Assembly (NCBI GenBank): GCA_963666345.1
Contig: OY762721.1
Location: 1,344,001 to 1,408,000 of the forward strand
DNA: 64,000 nt
From: Desulfatiglandales bacterium
GTDB lineage: Bacteria > Desulfobacterota > DSM-4660 > Desulfatiglandales > Desulfatiglandaceae
Direction: 5' to 3'
Notes under the pieces: model-generated
Told to the model about the DNA's origin: nothing
What the model saw: the letters and a program-made list of their open reading frames with translations, nothing else
Database searches by the model: none
Shown: positions 5,105 to 15,980 of the stretch, in pieces
Position numbering within the stretch: the stretch's first letter is position 1
Layout: each line of letters begins with the position of its first letter
Made by a program: the position numbers and the translations under genes

Positions 5105-5133
5105 AAAGACTGCTACTCGTAATCAATTTGTGA

Positions 5134-5175
5134 ATTTTGGGGACAGTTTTTTAATTAATATCTTGTCCCCAGAAT
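5134..5175. repeat. REP-like palindrome
   Basis: ATTTTGGGGACA...TGTCCCCAGAAT inverted repeat. Confidence 0.6.
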
Positions 5176-5409
5176 ACCTTTATCTGCAGCGGCCGCAGTG
5201 CTTCGGAAGGGAAGCAGTGGAGATCACTGCTCGTTATTTCGTTCCGCGCCGAGGGTAAACCGTTGAAACAGGCCGAGGACTGTTGTCCCTTCTCTCGCGA
5301 AGGTGCTCCAGGGCTCGGAAAGGGTGATCTCCACCATGCCCGTTTGCCGCAGTGCCAATGACGGAGGCTCTAACGGTATTCTTTTAATGTCAGACCCTTC
5401 GCCCGGCGG

Positions 5410-5537
5410 AATCAACGAAAAGCTAACCAGCGGCGGGATGATTGCCAACCCTCTTGGGAAAGCTCAAACTCTGGTTAACTGCTAATTCATACAAAATGCC
5501 CCGGTTTTAGCCGTCTGAGTTAAGCGCCTGGTTAGGG
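5410..5537 (-). other. attC site (128 bp)
   Basis: AATCAAC-gaaaag-CTAACCAGCGGC...GCCG(t)CTG(a)GTT(a)AG-cgcctg-GTTAGGG. R'' GTTAGGGTG matches cassette start CACCCTAAC (6587-6595). Confidence 0.8.
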
Positions 5538-6588: not shown

Positions 6589-6645
6589 CCCTAACGAATT
6601 AATCAGCGGCCCGCTTTTTGGGTCCGCTGAATTTTCATGTTAAAT
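6589..6645 (-). other. attC site (57 bp)
   Basis: CCCTAAC-gaatta-ATCAGCGG-CCC...GGG(t)CCGCTG(a)AT-tttcat-GTTAAAT. Confidence 0.9.
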
Positions 6646-6647
6646 TC

Positions 6648-7346
6648 TTACTTTAATGACGGCATAGGCTTATGTTTAATCACTAAATATAGAACATCAG
6701 ATTGGAACCATGGAGACGTTGTTTTTTGATCTTTAGCGTCAAATGTTTCTTCCACGTGTGAGATTCCAATTAAAGATAAGGCGTCACTTAACCTTTTTGC
6801 ATCACCTAACCGTGTTCCTTCAAATATTCCAATTGAAACGCCATATTCGTTCTGCGTGTAATTCTTTATCCGCATCGTTTGCCAATGTGCCTCACGCAAA
6901 GCCACATCAAAATCATTCGCGAAATCTGAACTCTCCGCATCCATCAATGTTGAGACGATTGCGACAGTTCCCGGATCATCAGTGAGAAGCTTAATCAACT
7001 TCTCACTTTGAGCATTTGTCAAACGACGTGGCTTGACTTCGCTTTCAAGTTTATTTGCTTTAGCCTCCGTCCGTGCTAACTGATCTGATTGTGTCACAAT
7101 AAAATTTTGAAGCTCATCGACTTTCTTGTTGGAATTGTAGGTTTCCATCGAATTTATAACCATAAGCATCAATGCAAATACCGGGAGTCCCCAATTTACT
7201 AAAAGAAATTCCAAACCAGTGCGCCATTTTTCTTTTCCAATTTTAGCAGATTTGAATGCAACCCATCTCTTCCCATGATCGAAATATGCGGGAAGAAAAG
7301 AAATAAAGCAAAGAGCTATGTTTAAAAATAATGATAATTTCCACAT
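6648..7346 (-). CDS. Hypothetical membrane-anchored protein, cassette gene
   Basis: 232-aa ORF filling the cassette; two N-terminal hydrophobic segments followed by a coiled coil. Confidence 0.75.
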   Translation of the reverse strand: MWKLSLFLNIALCFISFLPAYFDHGKRWVAFKSAKIGKEKWRTGLEFLLVNWGLPVFALMLMVINSMETYNSNKKVDELQNFIVTQSDQLARTEAKANKLESEVKPRRLTNAQSEKLIKLLTDDPGTVAIVSTLMDAESSDFANDFDVALREAHWQTMRIKNYTQNEYGVSIGIFEGTRLGDAKRLSDALSLIGISHVEETFDAKDQKTTSPWFQSDVLYLVIKHKPMPSLK

Positions 7347-7365: not shown

Positions 7366-7516
7366 GGCCCCGCGGATCAGCGGCGGGCGAACGCGCGAGC
7401 TTGCTCGCGTGGATGACCGACCGCTGCATCCGCTTGATGGCCGGCGCGCAGCGCCGGACAGCATGCGGATGATAATACGCGGGGCCGATGGCACGGCGCG
7501 TAGCGTCCGTGCCATC
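7366..7516 (-). mobile_element. 151-bp gene-less structured element, copy 1 (G variant)
   Basis: Four copies identical except for one loop base; inserted at the attC crossover. Confidence 0.85.
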
Positions 7517-7580
7517 ATCGAGATCACCTGCCGCTATGTAGCGCAGCGGAGTAGCGGTCAGGTGGAGCGCCTTGTTAGCC
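7517..7580 (-). other. attC body of the methyltransferase cassette (R' replaced by element end, ATC)
   Basis: atcgag-ATCACCTG-CCGCTA...TAGCGG(t)CAGGTG(g)AG-cgcctt-GTTAGCC. R'' matches cassette start GGGCTAAC (8229-8236). Confidence 0.85.
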
Positions 7581-8211
7581 CAGTGACGGTTCTATAAAGA
7601 CTTGCTATTACTGGAATAAATATCGGCGGTGTCAGCTTTAGAACTATTTGTCTAATCGATTTTTTATCGGCTTTCTGCCATTTTGCGTACTTTTCTGTAA
7701 ACTCTGTTAAAGAAGGCTTATCATTTTTAAAGCCAATTCCTACTATTGTATGAGGAAAACTCTCATTACCTTGAAATCCCACGAAAGACTTATCGAAGGG
7801 CTTCAAAATTGATTTGAATGCTTCAGGTGTGAATCGCCAATAATCATAGGGATGATCGTGAATAGGAAAATCCATAACAGAACTAATTACTGCAATTCCA
7901 TTAGGTTTAAGTATTCGATGTATCTCTTCTAATGCCTTACGGGGATATTCAACATGTTCCAGTGTATCAAAACACAAAACTGTTCCAACGGATTCAGAAG
8001 GGATGTCAATCGCATGTAAATCCAATATCTTATCAACGCCTAGGCCTTCTCGCATGTCACAACCAATATATTCTTTATTGCGGAATAACGGACGCAAATC
8101 CGCAAACCCTATCTGCTCAGGTACTTGAAATGAACCAAATTCATATATAGGTTCAAGGGTTGGTAACGTTATGCTTACTATGCTTGCAAAGTCTTTAACG
8201 TTCTGTCTCAT
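7558..8211 (-). CDS. Class I SAM-dependent methyltransferase, cassette gene
   Basis: EFGS motif-I variant, DTLEHVEYP, ILKPNG, HDHPYDYWRFT. Confidence 0.85.
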   Translation of the reverse strand: MRQNVKDFASIVSITLPTLEPIYEFGSFQVPEQIGFADLRPLFRNKEYIGCDMREGLGVDKILDLHAIDIPSESVGTVLCFDTLEHVEYPRKALEEIHRILKPNGIAVISSVMDFPIHDHPYDYWRFTPEAFKSILKPFDKSFVGFQGNESFPHTIVGIGFKNDKPSLTEFTEKYAKWQKADKKSIRQIVLKLTPPIFIPVIASLYRTVTGLTRRST

Positions 8212-8236
8212 ACTAATTCCTCTTTTTCGGGCTAAC

Positions 8237-8387
8237 GGCCCCGCGGATCAGCGGCGGGCGAACGCGCGAGCTTGCTCGCGTGGATGACCGACCGCTGCAT
8301 CCGCTTGATGGCCGGCGCGCAGCGCCGGACAGCATGCGGATGATAATACGCGGGGCCGATGGCACGGCGCATAGCGTCCGTGCCATC
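8237..8387 (-). mobile_element. 151-bp gene-less structured element, copy 2 (A variant)
   Basis: Same as copy 1 except A at 8371. Confidence 0.85.
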
Positions 8388-8442
8388 GCCGATCTTCAGC
8401 GGGCGCGGCTTTTTGCGATCCGCTGCAAGAGCATGGTTATGA
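8388..8442 (-). other. attC body of a cyclase-like cassette
   Basis: gccgat-CTTCAGCGG...CCGCTG(c)AAG-agcatg-GTTATGA. R'' GTTATGAAAT matches cassette start ATTTCATAAC (9428-9437). Confidence 0.85.
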
Positions 8443-8482
8443 AATAATCAGTGTTACTTGCTCAAAACGCTCTTTCCCATTC

Positions 8483-9400
8483 TTATTCACTTTGAAGGTC
8501 GATACCCCAATCCGGTAACCGTGACTCCACGTAGTTTCGAAGAAGAGTGTATCGAAATCCCAGCTTAGAGTTCCGAGCTTCTTTATGTTTAATAGATTCA
8601 TGAATGATAAAGTTGTAAGCAATGCGAACATGTTCGACGTGCTTCTGGAACGTGGATCTGATATCAGACCCCAGCCAATCAAGAAACGTGCACCCGTCAT
8701 CATCTACCGCAAGAAGTCCCAGTGCTCTCGTAGCGAGGTCAGCGTGTGCCTGCTCCTCTGCTGCGGTTATCCCTTCCAGGCCCGAGATGGACTGAAGATA
8801 GCGCACAAGCTCCTCACCGACAACTACTCTAGGGTACTGAGCCACCTTGCTTTCCAGCCTGTAAGCTCTAGCGAGGGCTGGACCATACACTTCGCCCTCT
8901 TCGATGTCCATTGCTAGACCGAGTTCGATTCCGCCCCGAATTGTCCAAGAATGCACCAGGCATGAGAGAAACGTCATGGCTGTTGCAGCCAAAACCCCAT
9001 AAATAGCGTGACATTGGAATTTACCTACGTCGTTACGCAGCGGAATATGGACTATCAGTGAATCAGAAAAATGCCGATAGAAGACGGGGGTACTCCTAAA
9101 CTGTTTCAGAAGTTCCTTTTCCAAAGGCGAAAACGCGCTCTCGTCTGAACCCCCTTCAAGGAATGGCTTGATACTGGCACTAAAGAAGCTTTGCAGGCCA
9201 TAAAGTGGTCTGTAAAGTTCGGCCACTTTCTGCTTAAAGGCGGCCACCTCTTCTTGGTTCTCGACATTAGGCAATACCGTCATTTTGCTGAGCACATCCT
9301 GCTGTCCAAGTAGGTCCAGAAATGCCACTACATACCATGCCATATGTTTCGGTTTCTGGTTCTTCGGGTCTTCTGTTCTATTCGCATCCTGATTCATCAT
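8483..9400 (-). CDS. Class III nucleotidyl-cyclase-like hypothetical protein, cassette gene
   Basis: AFLDLLG, FSDS, RGGIELG, YGPALARAYRLES..AQYPR. Confidence 0.7.
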   Translation of the reverse strand: MMNQDANRTEDPKNQKPKHMAWYVVAFLDLLGQQDVLSKMTVLPNVENQEEVAAFKQKVAELYRPLYGLQSFFSASIKPFLEGGSDESAFSPLEKELLKQFRSTPVFYRHFSDSLIVHIPLRNDVGKFQCHAIYGVLAATAMTFLSCLVHSWTIRGGIELGLAMDIEEGEVYGPALARAYRLESKVAQYPRVVVGEELVRYLQSISGLEGITAAEEQAHADLATRALGLLAVDDDGCTFLDWLGSDIRSTFQKHVEHVRIAYNFIIHESIKHKEARNSKLGFRYTLLRNYVESRLPDWGIDLQSE

Positions 9401-9437
9401 ACATTCCTGACTTCTGGCCTACTTTCTATTTCATAAC

Positions 9438-9588
9438 GGCCCCGCGGATCAGCGGCGGGCGAACGCGCGAGCTTGCTCGCGTGGATGACCGACCGCTGCA
9501 TCCGCTTGATGGCCGGCGCGCAGCGCCGGACAGCATGCGGATGATAATACGCGGGGCCGATGGCACGGCGCGTAGCGTCCGTGCCATC
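9438..9588 (-). mobile_element. 151-bp gene-less structured element, copy 3 (G variant)
   Basis: Identical to copy 1. Confidence 0.85.
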
Positions 9589-9668
9589 GTTAAAATAACT
9601 GGCAAATTAAAGCGGTGCGGCGATAGGAGCGCCGCTTTAATTTGTCCAAGTTGATTTTCTTGTTATGT
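9589..9668 (-). other. attC body of the STAND cassette
   Basis: gttaaa-ATAACTGG-CAAATTAAAGCGG...CCGCTTTAATTTG(t)CCAAGTT(g)AT-tttctt-GTTATGT. R'' matches ACACATAAC (13566-13574). Confidence 0.85.
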
Positions 9669-9740
9669 GTTGATTGCATCATCCCTGCCAGACTTTATCA
9701 TCAAAAAGCACAATAGCTGCTTACGGCCAAAATCGGACAT

Positions 9741-12700
9741 TCAGAATCTATCCTCCATAAAATCGGATTTTTTCTCAGCTTCCATCATTTTCCGATTACC
9801 TTGCACATGCCTTTCAATATAAAGCTTATGTTGAAGAAGGTCTGCGGTGTTGCACAAGGGCAAAAGCGATTCCCAATATTCAACCCGCGCTTGATACATT
9901 GGCACCGCACTTCCTGAGCCACCCCAAGTATCAGGCTCCAATGCCAACCTCTCAAAATCTTCATAACTTTTATTGTTTTCAAGAAACAACTCTATGAAGC
10001 GCTTCCGCCTTTCCGGAGCAAAATGCGATATTGGCTTAAATATTAAAGCCATTAAGTAGGAGTCTTGTGCTTGCTCCTGAATTATTGCCACCAGAAATTC
10101 ATCCTGCTTTGCTACAGCTTCCGGCGGGCATTTTTTGTTGCCATGAACACAGAAGAGCCGTTCCATATAGCTTCCTAATATATATCCCCGCCCTTTTTCA
10201 TGTTGCAGTAAGCGCTCTATTGCACGCGACATAATGGTATCACAGTCATTGTGATGCCACAGAAACGCATAATCACGTGTGTCTGCATAACTGCGCGCCC
10301 ATTCATCACCATCATATACCCGATCTGTATACTCCAGTATAAAATCAGGATTTACGGACAGTATGCGGCCAAGCGTCGCGCCGTTATAATCAGCATTTCT
10401 ATCCACCTTTATGTGAACCATGTATGCTCTTTCCAAAGAGTCTTGATGACCGTCGAAAAGATCAAAAATTTGTTTATTAGCCTCCGAAAGCGGATTGAAG
10501 AGAGAGTCCAATCCGTGGCCAAAAAAATCATCTGTCTCTGCTTTTTCTACAATTATGTTTGTAACATTCACGACAACACCACTGTCTTGCGCTGTATAAT
10601 TTAGCAGATAATCGTAATCGTATGGCAGTTCGCTGCGTTCAGCATTCCGGTAGAGTTCATACAAATTTTCTATGGTTTCAGAGTTAATATCCTCGGGTGA
10701 TAGGCATAGATAGTAACCAAAAAGCCATTGCCGTTTGGCCGGATATTCAGGCTCTTCAACAATCTTAAGCGTTTGTTTAGCGCCGCACGTTTTCAGCAAC
10801 TTATCGACGATTATAGCAGGTTGCTGTATTGCCAGAGGGTTTCCCAATTTCAAATATTCCTGGATTACCTGTACATAAAGAGGGCCGTCTCTTTCTGCAA
10901 GAGCCAGTAGGGCCTGCAGGATTCCTGTCTTAACTTCGTGCGTTTCGTGACTGCCGCTTATATAGGACATTATTTCTATAAACTGCTGAATAAGCCGTAG
11001 ATAGTCATCAAGACCAAATTTGCTTGTATAGTCCTTTATTTTTTGTTTTTTGAATTTTTCAAATTCACGAAAGCCCATATCTCCTGCATCGGAGTAATCA
11101 AAAGACAGCAATTTGTATATTTCATAAATTCCATTACGGAAGTTTTCGGAAAGCTTGTCCATATCAGGAATATCGCGGAGGTCGAGCATGGCAAGATAAT
11201 CCTGTACAATAAGGCAATGTGAAAAATTATCCGGGTCGAGCGTGTCTCTAATAAACGGAATTACAACCTCTGCATCTTTGACTGCGATCTCTTTTTGTGA
11301 CAGGTAATAGCCCGAATTGCTGTAGCTTTTCAAAACGCCCAAAGCTTCTTTTTGAAAAGAGAAGTTTTGATACAGATGAAAAATACCGTTCCAAATAGCC
11401 CTCCGTAGCTCGAAAATCGGTTCAATTGCTATGAGGTTAAACTGATGTATGGTTATAGAGTTTTTTGACGCCTCGTGGCTTTCAAACCGTGTGGGCATAT
11501 ATTTTTTTGCAACAGCAAGAAACAGCTTCGAAAACAATTCATTCCTGCCCTGATCAGCTTTTTGCCAGAGAGTTTCAATCACAATCCTTTGAATGATATA
11601 TTCCCGAAGATGAGAATGGTGCGTAAATCCAAATCTTTTTGTTAGGAGATTAAGAAATTGGGGAACAGCTTGCGGTATTTTCTCCACATAATTAAAGGCC
11701 AATTCAAGCGCAGAACGGAAAGTGCCCTTTTCATCTGCCTGTTTAAAGAGACCCAAAAGGTCTAGAAGAGGGTGCAAATCTGTATCAGGGTTTTCCGCCG
11801 CCCAGTCTATGGAAGCGAGTTCAACTGGTTTTGCCTCTACTGCTTCAATGCAGTCACGGATATAAACAAGAGCATCCGATTGAAGCAAAAACCAGAATAG
11901 CCGGATGAGCGAATGCAGATTGTTTGTATCCCCGCTATTCATTAAATCGCGCCTTTTCTTTTGTATATGAGGACGCATCTGCGCTGTGAGCCTTGCGAAG
12001 TCAAACGCGTTCAAACAGGGATAAATGGCATCTCTAAAACGGTTAGTTTGCCCAGGAAAGAAATTGTCTATGAGGGTAGTAAAGTCGAGAATCTCATCTT
12101 TGAAAAAGCAAAGATAAAATAAATAAGTGACAAAAACTTGATCACTGATTTTTACAACTTCACGTTCATAAATATTAACAACCTCACAGTCGTGAAGATG
12201 TTGGACCGCTTTCCAGAAATCTTCAGGAGCAATTCCAAAAATATTTTGTATGAGTTGCATCAATTCTGTGTTGGAGCGATCTATAGTCCTGAAAAAAGAA
12301 ATGATTCCTGCAACCTTCAAAACATTCTCATCCTGCAGGTTTCTAAGGTCATTAGATATGGAGGCAAAATATTCATCATATAGGACAGAGACATCCCTGA
12401 TGCTGTCAAAACTACCGTGTTTGACCGCTACTTTTGCTGCCATGATTGCAAGCCGTGGGTTGCCCCCGGAAATCTCAGCAATTCTGTCCAGAAATAATGG
12501 GTTTGTTATGTTGTATTGCTCCTTAACCAAATCCTTTATTTCTTGCGCCTGCATCGGTTTCAACTCTATTTCAGGGGTTGCTCCCAAGGGTTTTGCGGCC
12601 TGGTTTATTTTGTCACGTGCGTAATCGCGCACGGTTGCGATCACTTTTATCTGCTGATCTTGTCTTTGGTTTTGGATAAGATCGACAACATAATCAAACC

Positions 12701-13511
12701 GTGTGATACGGTTTGCATCATCCACTAAAATCAGAAATTGGCCGGGCTGTGAAAAATGAGTGCGTATATCTTCGAACAGGTCGGGTCCCCTGTTATATAT
12801 GCACCGCGTTTCAAAATCCGGATGTGCTTCCTCAAAATCTTGAAGAGCCTGCAGGCCAAGGCGGGATTTACCAACACCAGCTTGGCCTGATAAAACCACA
12901 AGGTTATTGTTTACCAGTCCTTCCAAAACTTGTTGTATTTCCTGCTCCCGGAAATGAAAATCTGTATCCAATGGTGTGGTAAGCTGATTTCTTCCTACAT
13001 TCGCTACAAAATCGCCCGGCTCCAAAATTTGCCCTGTATCAATGCTAATGCCCAGAAAAGCCTGCGCTAGGCCCGGATACTTTTGATAGAGGTCAAAGGA
13101 GATACTGCCTATTCCAAAAACCTGAATATTTACCCCTTTTTGCTTGCCTTCATCGTAAAGCTCTTTCTCTTCTTCAGGTGAAAGAAGAGATGTATGGCAG
13201 AAAACAATTTCCTCAATCTCAGTTAATAGAATGCCAGTTTTAGTCTCATCAAGGCATTTACTCAGATCGCCTTTTAATTTAGACGCAATATTCGTTTGGT
13301 CTGTGGTAAATTCTGCAAAAATAAGTTTGCCATTTTTCTGTCGTATATAAGTATCTGGTGTCCCTTTTCGTACTTTATTTGCACCGATCACAGAACCGAT
13401 AGGGTTGATATTGTTATAGCCTTTTTTGTGTATATAACTGTCTGCCAGTTTTTGGAACTCTCCGCATCCAATTTCTTTTAGGGCCTTTTCTATCTGGTTA
13501 ATCTTAGACAT
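9741..13511 (-). CDS. Mrr/REase-like N-terminus plus STAND P-loop NTPase (Avs-like putative antiphage protein), cassette gene
   Basis: N-terminal F..L...GTPD...E motif, Walker A GQAGVGKS, Walker B LILVDD, GGNP, long helical C-terminus; 1256 aa. Confidence 0.75.
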   Translation of the reverse strand: MSKINQIEKALKEIGCGEFQKLADSYIHKKGYNNINPIGSVIGANKVRKGTPDTYIRQKNGKLIFAEFTTDQTNIASKLKGDLSKCLDETKTGILLTEIEEIVFCHTSLLSPEEEKELYDEGKQKGVNIQVFGIGSISFDLYQKYPGLAQAFLGISIDTGQILEPGDFVANVGRNQLTTPLDTDFHFREQEIQQVLEGLVNNNLVVLSGQAGVGKSRLGLQALQDFEEAHPDFETRCIYNRGPDLFEDIRTHFSQPGQFLILVDDANRITRFDYVVDLIQNQRQDQQIKVIATVRDYARDKINQAAKPLGATPEIELKPMQAQEIKDLVKEQYNITNPLFLDRIAEISGGNPRLAIMAAKVAVKHGSFDSIRDVSVLYDEYFASISNDLRNLQDENVLKVAGIISFFRTIDRSNTELMQLIQNIFGIAPEDFWKAVQHLHDCEVVNIYEREVVKISDQVFVTYLFYLCFFKDEILDFTTLIDNFFPGQTNRFRDAIYPCLNAFDFARLTAQMRPHIQKKRRDLMNSGDTNNLHSLIRLFWFLLQSDALVYIRDCIEAVEAKPVELASIDWAAENPDTDLHPLLDLLGLFKQADEKGTFRSALELAFNYVEKIPQAVPQFLNLLTKRFGFTHHSHLREYIIQRIVIETLWQKADQGRNELFSKLFLAVAKKYMPTRFESHEASKNSITIHQFNLIAIEPIFELRRAIWNGIFHLYQNFSFQKEALGVLKSYSNSGYYLSQKEIAVKDAEVVIPFIRDTLDPDNFSHCLIVQDYLAMLDLRDIPDMDKLSENFRNGIYEIYKLLSFDYSDAGDMGFREFEKFKKQKIKDYTSKFGLDDYLRLIQQFIEIMSYISGSHETHEVKTGILQALLALAERDGPLYVQVIQEYLKLGNPLAIQQPAIIVDKLLKTCGAKQTLKIVEEPEYPAKRQWLFGYYLCLSPEDINSETIENLYELYRNAERSELPYDYDYLLNYTAQDSGVVVNVTNIIVEKAETDDFFGHGLDSLFNPLSEANKQIFDLFDGHQDSLERAYMVHIKVDRNADYNGATLGRILSVNPDFILEYTDRVYDGDEWARSYADTRDYAFLWHHNDCDTIMSRAIERLLQHEKGRGYILGSYMERLFCVHGNKKCPPEAVAKQDEFLVAIIQEQAQDSYLMALIFKPISHFAPERRKRFIELFLENNKSYEDFERLALEPDTWGGSGSAVPMYQARVEYWESLLPLCNTADLLQHKLYIERHVQGNRKMMEAEKKSDFMEDRF

Positions 13512-13567
13512 CAGAAGTTTATCCTTTCAAACGTCCGCTATGGGTCGAAAAAGGACATTCCCAAGAC

Positions 13568-13625
13568 ACATAACGATTGAACTGTGCGGCGCGTTTTTTG
13601 CGTCCGCACCAGTGACAGGTTAGCC
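13568..13625 (-). other. attC site (58 bp)
   Basis: ACATAAC-gattga-ACTGTGCGG-CGC...GCG(t)CCGCAC(c)AGT-gacag-GTTAGCC. Confidence 0.9.
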
Positions 13626-13631
13626 AAATTT

Positions 13632-14522
13632 TTAATCAACTCCCCATATTCTTTTACGTGAGTTGATATAATTTAATAACCGGAAATATCTTGAGGATAG
13701 TTTATCATTTTCAGCCTTTACGTATTTTTGATGCTGAGAGACCACAAAATCATATGCAAGATTTACTACTTCTGTATCAATGGAATTATCTGCCGTTTCC
13801 TTGGATTTTTCCCCCATAAAATCGAGCATGAAACGTCCATCTGTGTCTCTAATAATCATTTCTCTACAAAATTTGGCCATATCTTTTGCCACCAAACCAA
13901 GTCGAGTTTTACACTGTTGATTTTCAACCCATAACAAATAATTTATGAGTTCTTTTCCGACAACAAAACGAGGATACTCAGCTAAATTGCTTTCGATAAA
14001 ATATGCACGTTCAAGCGCTGGCCCATATATTTCCTGTCCTTCGATTTTTGTTCCAATCCCTACATCTAATCCAGCCCGCAAAGCAATAGTGGCAGCTAGG
14101 CTGATAAAACCAATACCACAAGTTGCTACAAGTGCAGAATAAACGCCATTAATGGCAGTACAATTCTCATCGTCACTCATTAGTGGTACAGCGACTATTA
14201 TTGAGTCAGAAAAACTATAAAAATAAACCTCAGATTTTTGTGAAGCTATAAACTCTTCACGATGTTCAGGTGGCACAAGATCGGTATTTGGAATATGCGA
14301 ACTGGAGGCTTTAAAGAAATCACTAAAAGCATTTCTAAGTCTATCAACTTTACCTACTGTTTGGCGTATTTTATCTAAAAAGACCTCTTTTTCCTCCTCA
14401 TTTGTAGGCAAATCTCTAATCTCACGCAATATGCTTCTTTGCCCAAGAATATCGAGAAAAACAATAAGATAGTGTTGAAATACCAAGTCACTTTTATTTT
14501 TTTGATTAATTTTAATATTCAT
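13632..14522 (-). CDS. Class III nucleotidyl-cyclase-like hypothetical protein, first gene cassette
   Basis: VFLDILG, FSDS, RAGLDVG, YGPALERAYFIES..AEYPR; homologous to 8483-9400. Confidence 0.7.
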   Translation of the reverse strand: MNIKINQKNKSDLVFQHYLIVFLDILGQRSILREIRDLPTNEEEKEVFLDKIRQTVGKVDRLRNAFSDFFKASSSHIPNTDLVPPEHREEFIASQKSEVYFYSFSDSIIVAVPLMSDDENCTAINGVYSALVATCGIGFISLAATIALRAGLDVGIGTKIEGQEIYGPALERAYFIESNLAEYPRFVVGKELINYLLWVENQQCKTRLGLVAKDMAKFCREMIIRDTDGRFMLDFMGEKSKETADNSIDTEVVNLAYDFVVSQHQKYVKAENDKLSSRYFRLLNYINSRKRIWGVD

Positions 14523-14538
14523 ATTTTTATTTGCTAAC

Positions 14539-14689
14539 GGCCCCGCGGATCAGCGGCGGGCGAACGCGCGAGCTTGCTCGCGTGGATGACCGACCGCTGC
14601 ATCCGCTTGATGGCCGGCGCGCAGCGCCGGACAGCATGCGGATGATAATACGCGGGGCCGATGGCACGGCGCATAGCGTCCGTGCCATC
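14539..14689 (-). mobile_element. 151-bp gene-less structured element, copy 4 (A variant), at the attI-proximal position
   Basis: Identical to copy 2; followed by non-attC sequence towards intI. Confidence 0.85.
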
Positions 14690-14780
14690 TAGTGAGTAGT
14701 GAGAATTATTTCCCGTTTAACAGTAAACGCGACTTTTTTCTCGTTTATTCAATATCCCGGAAGTAATTCTCGTTTATTGA
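14689..14780 (-). other. Putative attI region
   Basis: Lies between the first array unit and intI; no attC hairpin; three direct repeats TT(C)YCGTTTA at 14710, 14738 and 14767. Confidence 0.5.
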
Positions 14781-14810
14781 GTCCTCTTGCACCTCTGTGG
14801 AACAAGCCTT

Positions 14811-14927
14811 TGCACAAAAACCTGTGCATGATTGCCCTAAAAATTGTGCAAATTCGCCGATCATATTTGCTGTCACCTTCTTAAAGTGCTGAATTTTATG
14901 GACATTCTTATCTGGCATGTTTCATGC
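14811..14927 (+). promoter_or_regulatory. Putative sigma54 promoter with two upstream activator-like palindromes, facing intI
   Basis: TGGCATGTTTCATGC (14913-14927, GG-N10-GC); TGCACA-N6-TGTGCA (14811) and TGCCCT-N6-TGTGCA (14833). Confidence 0.5.
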
Positions 14928-15011
14928 GTTCTTTTTCTGCATGCGCATGCTGCTAAGAGGTTAATATTACATAATATCACGCCATAAAGCTCGTATATTG
15001 GATTTATTGAA

Positions 15012-15980
15012 ATGAATACCACCTCTAAACCCAAAAAGCTGCTCGACCAGGTCAGGGACGTGCTTCGAGTAAAGCACTACGCATACAGGACCGAGAAAAC
15101 CTACATATTCTGGATTCGCAGATTCATCCTTTTTCATGAAAAGAAACACCCTTCGGAAATGGGCTCAAAGCAAATCCAGGATTTTTTGACACACTTGGCA
15201 GTGGAACGTAACGTCTCCGCCTCCACCCAGAACCAAGCTTTGAACGCTTTAATTTTTCTGTATAAAAAGGTCCTCCGCATTGATTTAACGGATCCCATTG
15301 AAGCCGTCCGCGCCAGACGGCCGACCCGACTTCCGGTCGTGCTTTCCAAACCGGAGGCATTTAAGATCATCGACCTCATTTCCGGCGAGTCTCAACTCAT
15401 CGTCAAGCTCCTCTACGGAAGCGGGCTTCGCCTGATGGAATGCATGCGGCTCCGTGTAAAGGATATCGACTTTTCAATGAACCAGATCCTTGTTCGTCAC
15501 GGTAAGGGCGGAAAGGACCGTGTGACAGTGCTCCCGGCGAATGTCACAGACTCTCTTCAAATGCATTTGAAAAAGGTCAGGGCCATTCATGAAGATGATT
15601 GCAGACATGGATTTGGCCATGTCAATCTTCCCGGGGCTCTCGCCAGAAAATATCCCAATGCCTCTAGTCAATGGGCGTGGCAATTTGTTTTCCCGTCCAG
15701 ATCTCTTTGCAAAGATCCACGCTCCGGAGAAATCCGGCGGCATCACCTGCACGAAAGCTGTGTAAGAAAGGCCCTTAAAAAGGCTGTAACTCTTGCCGAC
15801 ATCCATAAGCAAGTCGGATGCCACTGCTTCCGGCACAGCTTTGCAACTCATCTCCTTGCAGACGGTTACGACATCCGCACTGTGCAGGAGCTGCTCGGGC
15901 ACAAAGACGTTTCCACAACAATGATTTACACGCACGTCCTGAACAAAGGCGGCCGTGCCGTTCGGAGCCCGATCGACTGA
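15012..15980 (+). CDS. intI: Integron integrase
   Basis: LLDQVR..LR..HY N-terminus; catalytic R (GLR), K (GKGGKDR), HCFRH, LGH and Y (TMIYTH); integron-specific insert ALARKYPNA...WQFVFPS. Confidence 0.97.

Follow-up and report, generated by a model that had tools for sequence, protein, structure and literature searches.

The 64,000-nucleotide stretch of DNA analysed here (the window; contig OY762721.1, positions 1,344,001 to 1,408,000, of a Desulfatiglandales bacterium) contains an integron whose cassette array holds four copies of a gene-less 151-bp repeat, which we name X. X is probably a micro-cassette without cargo that is mobilised by the integron integrase (IntI), a reading based on comparison of its sequence and its insertion sites across a wider family. 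An earlier annotation of the window (the original prediction) had offered, as one of two explanations, an empty cassette of minimal size that is recombined by IntI through a G|AT core. This explanation is favoured by the N|WT pattern of the X junctions, by an attI free of X, by ordinary cassettes with an open reading frame (ORF) that use the X body as their recombination site (attC), and by an insertion at G|ATGGC in an RloB-like gene. X is described on the minus strand, which is the cassette strand, and positions p1, p2 and so on are counted along it. The 4.16-Mb genome carrying the window is denoted G000:C1, and L-numbers (such as L084) denote loci in other genomes and metagenomes. The copies in the window are as follows.

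7366..7516, minus strand: X copy 1, 151 bp, 108/151 G+C, plus-strand flank TTTAAC
8237..8387, minus strand: X copy 2, 151 bp, 107/151 G+C, plus-strand flank GCTAAC
9438..9588, minus strand: X copy 3, 151 bp, same sequence as copy 1, 108/151 G+C, plus-strand flank CATAAC
14539..14689, minus strand: X copy 4, 151 bp, 107/151 G+C, plus-strand flank GCTAAC; first unit of the array, touching attI

Re-reading of the window matched exactly the four 151-bp copies and the single base by which the original prediction had distinguished them. This sole difference, G/A at plus-strand position 135, lies in the loop of the 5′ hairpin (H1) and is common to copies 2 and 4. The predicted G+C content of 108/151 is correct for copies 1 and 3 and wrong for copies 2 and 4, and the proportion of four in twelve array units stands as a rough count only (four X in addition to approximately eight cassettes with an ORF). 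On the plus strand, every copy comes after the expected cassette-start core, which is TAAC in all four cases, and each terminates in GTGCCATC; read on the minus strand, X starts with GATGGCAC and the next letters are GTT. The repetition is beyond chance (BLAST E = 4e-74 in the 4.16-Mb genome), and the G+C content of X (71%) compares with 41.7% for the array minus X. X contains no transposase ORF and, as had been claimed, no target duplication beyond one ambiguous base. Deletion of copies 1-3 in silico restores attC sites, as had been proposed, in that AAC...GTT hairpin sites are left (−24.7 kcal/mol for that of copy 3), and copy 4 indeed lies directly against the putative attI, 323 bp from intI.

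The mode of insertion is indicated by the junctions. As X starts with G and is also followed by G, its frame is ambiguous by one base in the source genome. The X family resolves this ambiguity. The final base of the R″ arm (p30) is paired with p152, the base following stem P1. Junctions could be parsed for 95 of 101 distinct X sites. The bases at p1, p30 and p152 are G, C and G in 84 of these, G, T and A in six, and T, T and A in one, with four exceptions; in the family alignment, the corresponding columns (35:176) form CG 65 times and AU nine times. The left-junction triplet is GAT at 84 sites, GTT at eight, AAT at two and TTT at one. At the right junction, GTT (79 sites) is accompanied by ATT (7), GAT (6) and others (3), and in the A-type elements with right junction ATT.. 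the left junction still starts with G. Since p152 covaries with the R″ arm of X itself while p1 is the G of the target, the exchange would take place between p1 and p2. A transposon-like insertion before GTT is disfavoured, since it would need seven independent targets with a non-canonical ATT. These junctions place the crossover precisely at N|WT, the exchange point of IntI, one base into the core triplet. The canonical R″/R′ core is found only in minor X subfamilies (GTTGT, GTTGG and GTTCG), and the main subfamily has ATC/GAT.

Two comparisons with empty sites agree with this. In the paralogous attI sites of the same genome, the sequence reads ..CTAAC|TAGTGAGTAG.. (CTAAC|TAGTGAG) where the window carries 151 bp. 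In a metagenome-assembled genome (MAG) of Chlorobiota (L084:1174-2002), X splits an RloB-like gene, of which the left half matches positions 1-97 and the right half positions 99-195 of PF13707. Removal of p2-p152 restores one frame of 225 residues, and the target reads ..CTTG|ATGGCAAAC, i.e. G|ATGGC. This copy shows that ordinary genes can be interrupted by X family members at GATGGC sites. GAT right junctions at sites that do not resemble attC include, besides L084, those at L042, L150 and L033. The claim that X is always found at integron crossover points thus holds in the source genome and fails elsewhere, where a few copies occupy non-integron GAT sites. Such sites have a precedent: IntI1, IntI2 and IntI3 reportedly put cassettes into genomic sites with a GWT consensus (attG), with cleavage between G and W (bioRxiv 10.1101/2022.09.11.507474). 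The RloB copy and five other G|AT right junctions fit this pattern, although the attG experiments concern resistance cassettes and IntI1-3 in E. coli, and the X sites are natural insertions only.

The sites chosen by X are mostly attCs. Mobility is indicated by 99 distinct left flanks among the 106 full X copies with enough flanking sequence, of which 56 fold as hairpins (z < −2) and about 19 (assigned by eye from the list) are AT-rich attI-type sequences or are of the same attI type as the window; intI is found beside six of these ~19. The first slot next to attI, with about one-fifth of the distinct X sites, is over-represented, which is expected if attI is the preferred entry point. The integron platform around copy 4 comprises the following features.

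14690..15011, no strand assigned: attI and promoter region, between X copy 4 and intI
15012..15980, plus strand: intI, integron integrase (TIGR02249, 471.6 bits against a cut-off of 265)

No other integron integrase of the 4.16-Mb genome scores above the family cut-off; that X stands beside the only intact IntI is supporting context for mobilisation by this enzyme. The second explanation of the original prediction, by which X is part of the integron platform, a leader derived from attI with copies ahead of several cassettes, would account for the contact of copy 4 with attI and for the X or mini X forms that adjoin attI in many genomes. It is nevertheless contradicted by the attI comparisons. 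The first ~150 bp of the attI region of the window have paralogues at ~3.10 Mb and ~3.77 Mb of G000:C1, both without X, and X is found beside two unrelated attI types. The intI gene is divergent from the cassettes beside X at L004 and L011, and is co-directional at L123, L189, L203, L225, L222 and L229, ending 175-290 nt upstream of X. As most X sites are attCs, as shown by the hairpin majority of the left flanks, and one copy lies within the RloB gene, an origin as a leader is highly improbable.

The mini X forms consist of H1 and a short P1 hairpin (about 40-58 nt; L009:1501-1558, L021:737-790 and L031:1501-1540) and adjoin attI, with a co-directional intI in L009 and L021. A deletion between the direct repeats (C/G)ATCCGC, of which X has two, accounts for them. 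At L185 (~696-905), an integron integrase gene has its N-terminal coding region (residues 4-49 by tblastn) fused directly to the 3′ part of an X body, which appears to be a rearrangement or insertion truncating intI.

The X body also occurs in place of an ordinary attC. At L154, it stands directly between ..TCCAAC and GTTGGA.., which are complementary and flank P1. At L029, it follows an ORF of 190 residues and is located between ..TCTAAC and GTTAAAC, and further ORF cassettes ending in an X body are found at L022, L161 and L224. Because the X body ends ordinary ORF cassettes, X is best described as the cargo-less member of a type of attC, rather than a foreign insert in attCs.

The family alignment (A1; 90 distinct full X copies) also defines the fold. 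RNAalifold identified 31 pairs, 18 of them with compensatory changes, and a fuller model of 58 pairs comprises H1 (p2-29), P1 (p30/31-39 with p143-151/152) extended by GAT/ATC, and the stem-loops SL-A (p46-90) and SL-B (p91-139). On copy 1, the parts are located as follows.

7516-7487, minus strand: H1 hairpin (p1-30)
7486-7478, minus strand: 5′ arm of P1 (p31-39)
7471-7427, minus strand: SL-A (p46-90)
7426-7378, minus strand: SL-B (p91-139)
7374-7366, minus strand: 3′ arm of P1 (p143-151)
7515-7365, minus strand: X copy 1 as a cassette in the IntI frame (p2-p152)

In the 58-pair model, 90.4% of the cells are paired, compared to 83.7 ± 0.2 in shuffled alignments, and 29 of the 58 pairs show compensatory (two-sided) changes, compared to 18.8 ± 2.0. 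On all five fold measures, each of the 500 shuffles falls short of the observed value, and sliding the partners by 1-3 columns reduces pairing to 27-43%. Covariation therefore strongly supports the X fold. The G-U and A-C exceptions are approximately balanced, so that the fold suits either DNA strand. When X is circularised, its parts follow each other as the R″ arm (..GCCATC), P1, GAT, SL-A, SL-B, ATC, the return strand of P1 and the R′ arm (N|ATGGC..), an arrangement that matches the attC order. SL-A contains, in its distal part, a degenerate copy of H1, and the five proximal bases of SL-A vary along with those of H1, the covarying classes being GATGG/CCATC, GATAG/CTATC, GATGT/ACATC, GTTGT/ACAAC, GTTGG/CCAAC and GTTCG/CGAAC. 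No Rfam family matched X at gathering thresholds (the scan of the window returned only two tRNAs); at E ≤ 10, the best match to one X copy had E = 0.34 over 19 nt.

These observations can be combined into a possible mechanism. The only “cargo” of X would be the loop of 8-10 nt that links R′ to R″. The 9-bp stem P1 is extended by the conserved GAT/ATC triplet, and SL-A and SL-B would serve as a branched variable region. IntI would recombine the folded site with attI, attC or a secondary site of the GWT type, crossing over after the first base of the core triplet, which is G|AT for most X members and G|TT or A|TT for the rest. Once X has been inserted, the left junction would consist of the target G followed by ATGG.., and the right junction of the last base of X itself followed by TT.. 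of the target. Integrated X would have its R″ paired with the new R′ of the site upstream, which forms the perfect H1 hairpin. IntI as the enzyme, excision of X as a circle and its selfish spread are inferred here. X may also confer a benefit, for example promoter activity.

Several observations do not sit easily with mobilisation by IntI. The core is GAT/ATC in 84 of 95 sites, not GTT/AAC. The 9-bp P1, which would correspond to the spacer, is fully paired in the consensus, with no unpaired central spacer and no extrahelical or conserved bulged bases evident within it; unpaired stretches, which are asymmetric, are found instead on either side of the GAT/ATC extension. SL-A and SL-B are kept in sequence across phyla far beyond the need of an attC variable region, and the arms of SL-A copy, and covary with, the R arms. 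An IntI model leaves both of these features unexplained, and they may point to another protein or to a role as RNA. The near-identity of the X copies could in part result from gene conversion. Neither an excised circle nor an X-free allele of the four window sites was found in the contigs of four sequencing runs, the data set to which this search was confined. In favour of mobility, contigs of three sediment metagenome runs have the cassette side of X joined to at least six sequences absent from the source genome; the loose ends in the contigs of one run are paralogous loci of this genome. Within the order, X does not track intI, which was detected in 7 of the 14 other X-positive genomes compared to 111 of 208 overall (E ≤ 1e-40), a weak test as the MAGs are fragmented.

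A further complication is that a group-II-intron-like sequence occupies the same spot of the same attC in a paralogous array, so that a position after the L′ hairpin is by itself no proof of IntI. X could accordingly be viewed as a remnant left, or a passenger carried, by the retromobility of group II introns, whose target is the position following a DNA hairpin: two arrays of the genome have such intron-like sequences at the equivalent position (in sense, after the L′ hairpin and spacer), and one of the attCs concerned is the duplicate of that carrying X copy 1 in the window. However, no group II model of Rfam matches X, although the same models match two other places in the genome; X is unlike intron ends and too short for a ribozyme, and its junctions fit G|WT exchange. 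A derivation from introns has therefore very little probability. The two intron-like sequences are located at L152:757-1165 (G000:C1 ~3101756-3102164; group-II-D1D4-3 at 83.7 bits and D1D4-1 at 37.8 bits, with no large reverse transcriptase ORF after it) and at L153:~1000-1370 (G000:C1 ~3279000-3279370; group-II D1D4-6 at 105.2 bits). Both begin right after an attC L′ hairpin and spacer in the sense of the cassettes, opposite to the published IIC-attC introns.

A non-autonomous transposable element also deserves consideration. X might be a miniature inverted-repeat element of an attC-targeting insertion sequence (IS) of the IS1111/IS110 type that has kept a guide (seek/bridge) RNA, or a derivative with hairpin ends of the IS200/IS605 type, mobilised by a transposase encoded elsewhere. 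IS1111-attC elements target attC and use an RNA from their own non-coding region (PMC11187229, PMC3001079). X is highly structured, with internal loops in its two stem-loops; the proximal five nucleotides of SL-A covary with the X 5′ end, as a donor guide would, and the targets at secondary sites have 3-6 nt in common with the X end. Against this stand the contents of the 4.16-Mb genome, where no other sequence contains the X body and the terminal 25-40 nt of X have no match elsewhere (the best, at chance level, have E ≥ 0.88). Termini shared with an autonomous IS, which the original prediction had named as a refuting observation, were thus not found in this genome. X has its inverted repeats at p31-39 and p143-151 instead of 7 and 3 nt away from its ends. 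Furthermore, IS1111-attC elements have their insertion point close to attC's 5′ end, in antisense relative to the cassettes (PMC3001079), whereas X is found at the 3′ end and in sense. A p1 that belongs to the target and a p152 that belongs to X, together with the use of the X body as attC of ORF cassettes, would be unexpected of a transposon, and we regard this origin as very unlikely. Two specific forms of it were tried and rejected. In the bridge/seek-RNA form (loop A against the X 5′ end), the 5′ side fits; no loop matches the 3′ end or the target, and the genome holds no partner IS. In the IS200/IS605 form, both hairpins are in one half of X, unlike the hairpins at these elements' left (LE) and right (RE) ends.

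Finally, X might be kept mainly for its effect on neighbouring cassettes, as a mobile promoter, a 5′ leader or a structured RNA before start codons, a role that is compatible with mobility by IntI. In all four window copies, the X end is 20-37 nt upstream of a cassette start codon and in sense, a placement that follows in any case from the architecture of cassettes. The conservation of SL-A and SL-B across phyla beyond the needs of pairing and the share of sites in the first slot are also in line with such a role, and most of the gene-less cassettes tested in Vibrionaceae are sense-strand promoters that could not be predicted in silico (PMC11014356). However, a simple scan for sigma-70-like sites found none inside X (in 14450-15050, one site outside X, compared to 1.6 expected), X matches no Rfam family, and the lack of a clear strand bias in the G-U/A-C exceptions is as expected for a fold at the DNA level. 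Thus, it is unlikely that regulation is what mainly maintains X. The idea of a sigma-54 site (TGGCAC at the X 5′ end) was discarded, as the motif is not retained in other subfamilies.

Canonical attC sites (59-be) have a RYYYAAC / GTTRRRY core, an unpaired central spacer of ~5-6 nt and extrahelical bases. X shares with them the R″-L″...L′-R′ order of inverted repeats, a covarying folded palindrome, a position at the 3′ end of ORF cassettes (the X bodies of L029 and L154) and a crossover after the first base of the R′ triplet. It differs by the GAT/ATC core of most members, a fully paired spacer of 9 bp, a length of ~128 nt and a variable region made of two sequence-conserved hairpins. IS1111-attC elements and group IIC-attC introns are likewise found at attC sites, which they occupy specifically as parasites. 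In contrast to X, these elements have their own enzyme and are inserted close to attC's 5′ end in antisense (PMC3001079); X lacks an enzyme and is found in sense at the 3′ crossover point. X also lacks the DEDD transposase of IS1111-attC elements and their subterminal inverted repeats of 11-13 bp, located 7 and 3 nt from the ends (PMC11187229, PMC3001079).

The closest parallels are gene-less cassettes. The chromosomal integrons of Vibrio contain paralogous non-coding cassettes with up to 45 copies per array, which are more than 80% identical between species (Boucher et al. 2006, PMC1382264). These have been discussed as selfish or as useful to the integron and have no homologues outside vibrios (PMC1382264). 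X is likewise gene-less and repeated within one array. Compared by description, it differs from the Vibrio cassettes in being present in MAGs titled as at least eight phyla, in being almost entirely a recombination site, and in having a conserved branched fold and a GAT core instead of GTT. X also resembles the gene-less cassettes of Vibrionaceae (PMC11014356) and the ORF-less cassettes of Treponema (PMC6557892), as it is free of ORFs and lies in sense upstream of other cassettes; a promoter function has been demonstrated for those cassettes, whereas the simple scan predicted none in X.

The X family extends well beyond the window. Three further copies in the genome each follow an attC-like hairpin in other cassette arrays.

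G000:C1:3098499-3098649: X copy, 100% identity
G000:C1:3278073-3278223: X copy, 86% variant
G000:C1:3534940-3535064: X copy, decayed, different subtype

All seven genomic copies thus sit at attC or attI within cassette arrays. Comparison of the 151-mer with the genome and with metagenomes, as the original prediction had suggested, yielded these seven and at least 127 metagenome loci. X matches were found by BLAST (E ≤ 0.01) in 15 of 209 genomes of the same order, source genome included. A pattern scan of one genome per species gave at least 120 loci, which were checked with a profile of the X alignment: at least 38 are confirmed full-length relatives, from MAGs of at least eight phyla, and the other 82 of the 120 are chance matches in G+C-rich genomes. 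The titles of the MAGs with confirmed relatives include Desulfobacteraceae/-ales, Syntrophobacteria, Syntrophus, Latescibacterota, Patescibacteria, Peribacteraceae, Spirochaetaceae, Chlorobiota, Omnitrophota, Gallionellaceae, Planctomycetota, PVC, Bacteroidales and others. In metagenomes, a scan with a motif from the 3′ half of X, which is blind to the 5′ hairpin, gave at least 137 loci, with at least 127 profile matches that reach the X 3′ end. Among these 127, the 5′ hairpin is complete in 62; in 16 the match begins at profile positions 4-20, and in the remaining 49 further on, with several of the latter interrupted by contig ends. X relatives occur in integrons of many sediment and groundwater bacteria. 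Integron integrases are themselves abundant in the order, with 101 of 209 genomes above the TIGR02249 cut-off and up to seven in one genome.

The cassettes of the window extend leftwards from intI on the minus strand. Their attC sites, with and without X, are listed below; a simple AAC...GTT attC finder missed known sites and matched coding DNA, and was excluded from all counts.

6590..6650, minus strand: attC without X (cassette 6648-7346)
7517..7580, minus strand: attC of the methyltransferase cassette (7558-8211); X copy 1 stands between R′ and L′
8388..8440, minus strand: attC belonging to cassette 8483-9400; its 3′ end carries X copy 2
9589..9672, minus strand: attC of the 9741-13511 (STAND-like NTPase) cassette; bears X copy 3
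13570..13628, minus strand: attC without X (cassette 13632-14522)

Without X copy 3, the attC at 9589..9672 has an R″ (CATAAC) complementary to its R′ (GTTATG). The methyltransferase cassette and its attC are duplicated at ~3.10 Mb of G000:C1 (99.5% over window positions 7507-8236), where the duplicate is the first cassette of the attI copy at ~3100885-3101037. Neither this attI-region copy nor that at ~3774926 has an intact intI alongside; a C-terminal intI fragment is located at G000:C1:3097163-3097258, in the opposite orientation. The cassettes 8483-9400 and 13632-14522, each directly downstream of an X copy, encode paralogous proteins (34% identity, E = 1e-49) without a Pfam match. Elsewhere in the window, a unit of 119 bp is present as two tandem copies (83-321; 95% identical), perhaps at the far end of the array, and two cassettes are separated by ~400 bp of non-coding, G+C-rich and apparently structured sequence (5105-5530), without an Rfam match at gathering thresholds.

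Amplified and conserved non-coding cassettes are already known from Vibrio (PMC1382264), so that the novelty is smaller than first assumed. What is new is the X family itself, its spread across phyla and its near-absence of content beyond the site, as well as the GAT core, the paired spacer and the conserved branched region with its duplicated R box. A limited literature search found no description of X, which is not proof of absence. As a tentative extension, X may be a hyperparasite of integrons, that is, a site that has shed its gene, out-competes ordinary cassettes for IntI by means of an evolved branched architecture of conserved sequence, with a GAT core, a paired spacer and an R box duplicated in SL-A, and crosses phyla, or SL-A/SL-B may be a second module (protein-binding or RNA) that makes X a portable regulatory unit for arrays. 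We consider this extension doubtful; if either version is true, X would stand for a new class of attC, recognised by rules of its own.

Integrons are usually seen as devices for gene capture, and elements that consist of the capture site only show that integrons have parasites or regulators of their own. The X family is a good test case, since it is tiny, has ~100 natural variants with clear covariation, and pins the crossover down to one phosphodiester through its natural insertions. From its non-canonical GAT core, its paired spacer and its conserved branched region follow specific and testable predictions on what an integron integrase accepts. Software built on the canonical attC model may overlook sites of the X type and misplace cassette boundaries. 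As the X sequence is conserved across phyla, it is also a handy marker for the exchange of cassettes among uncultured anaerobes.

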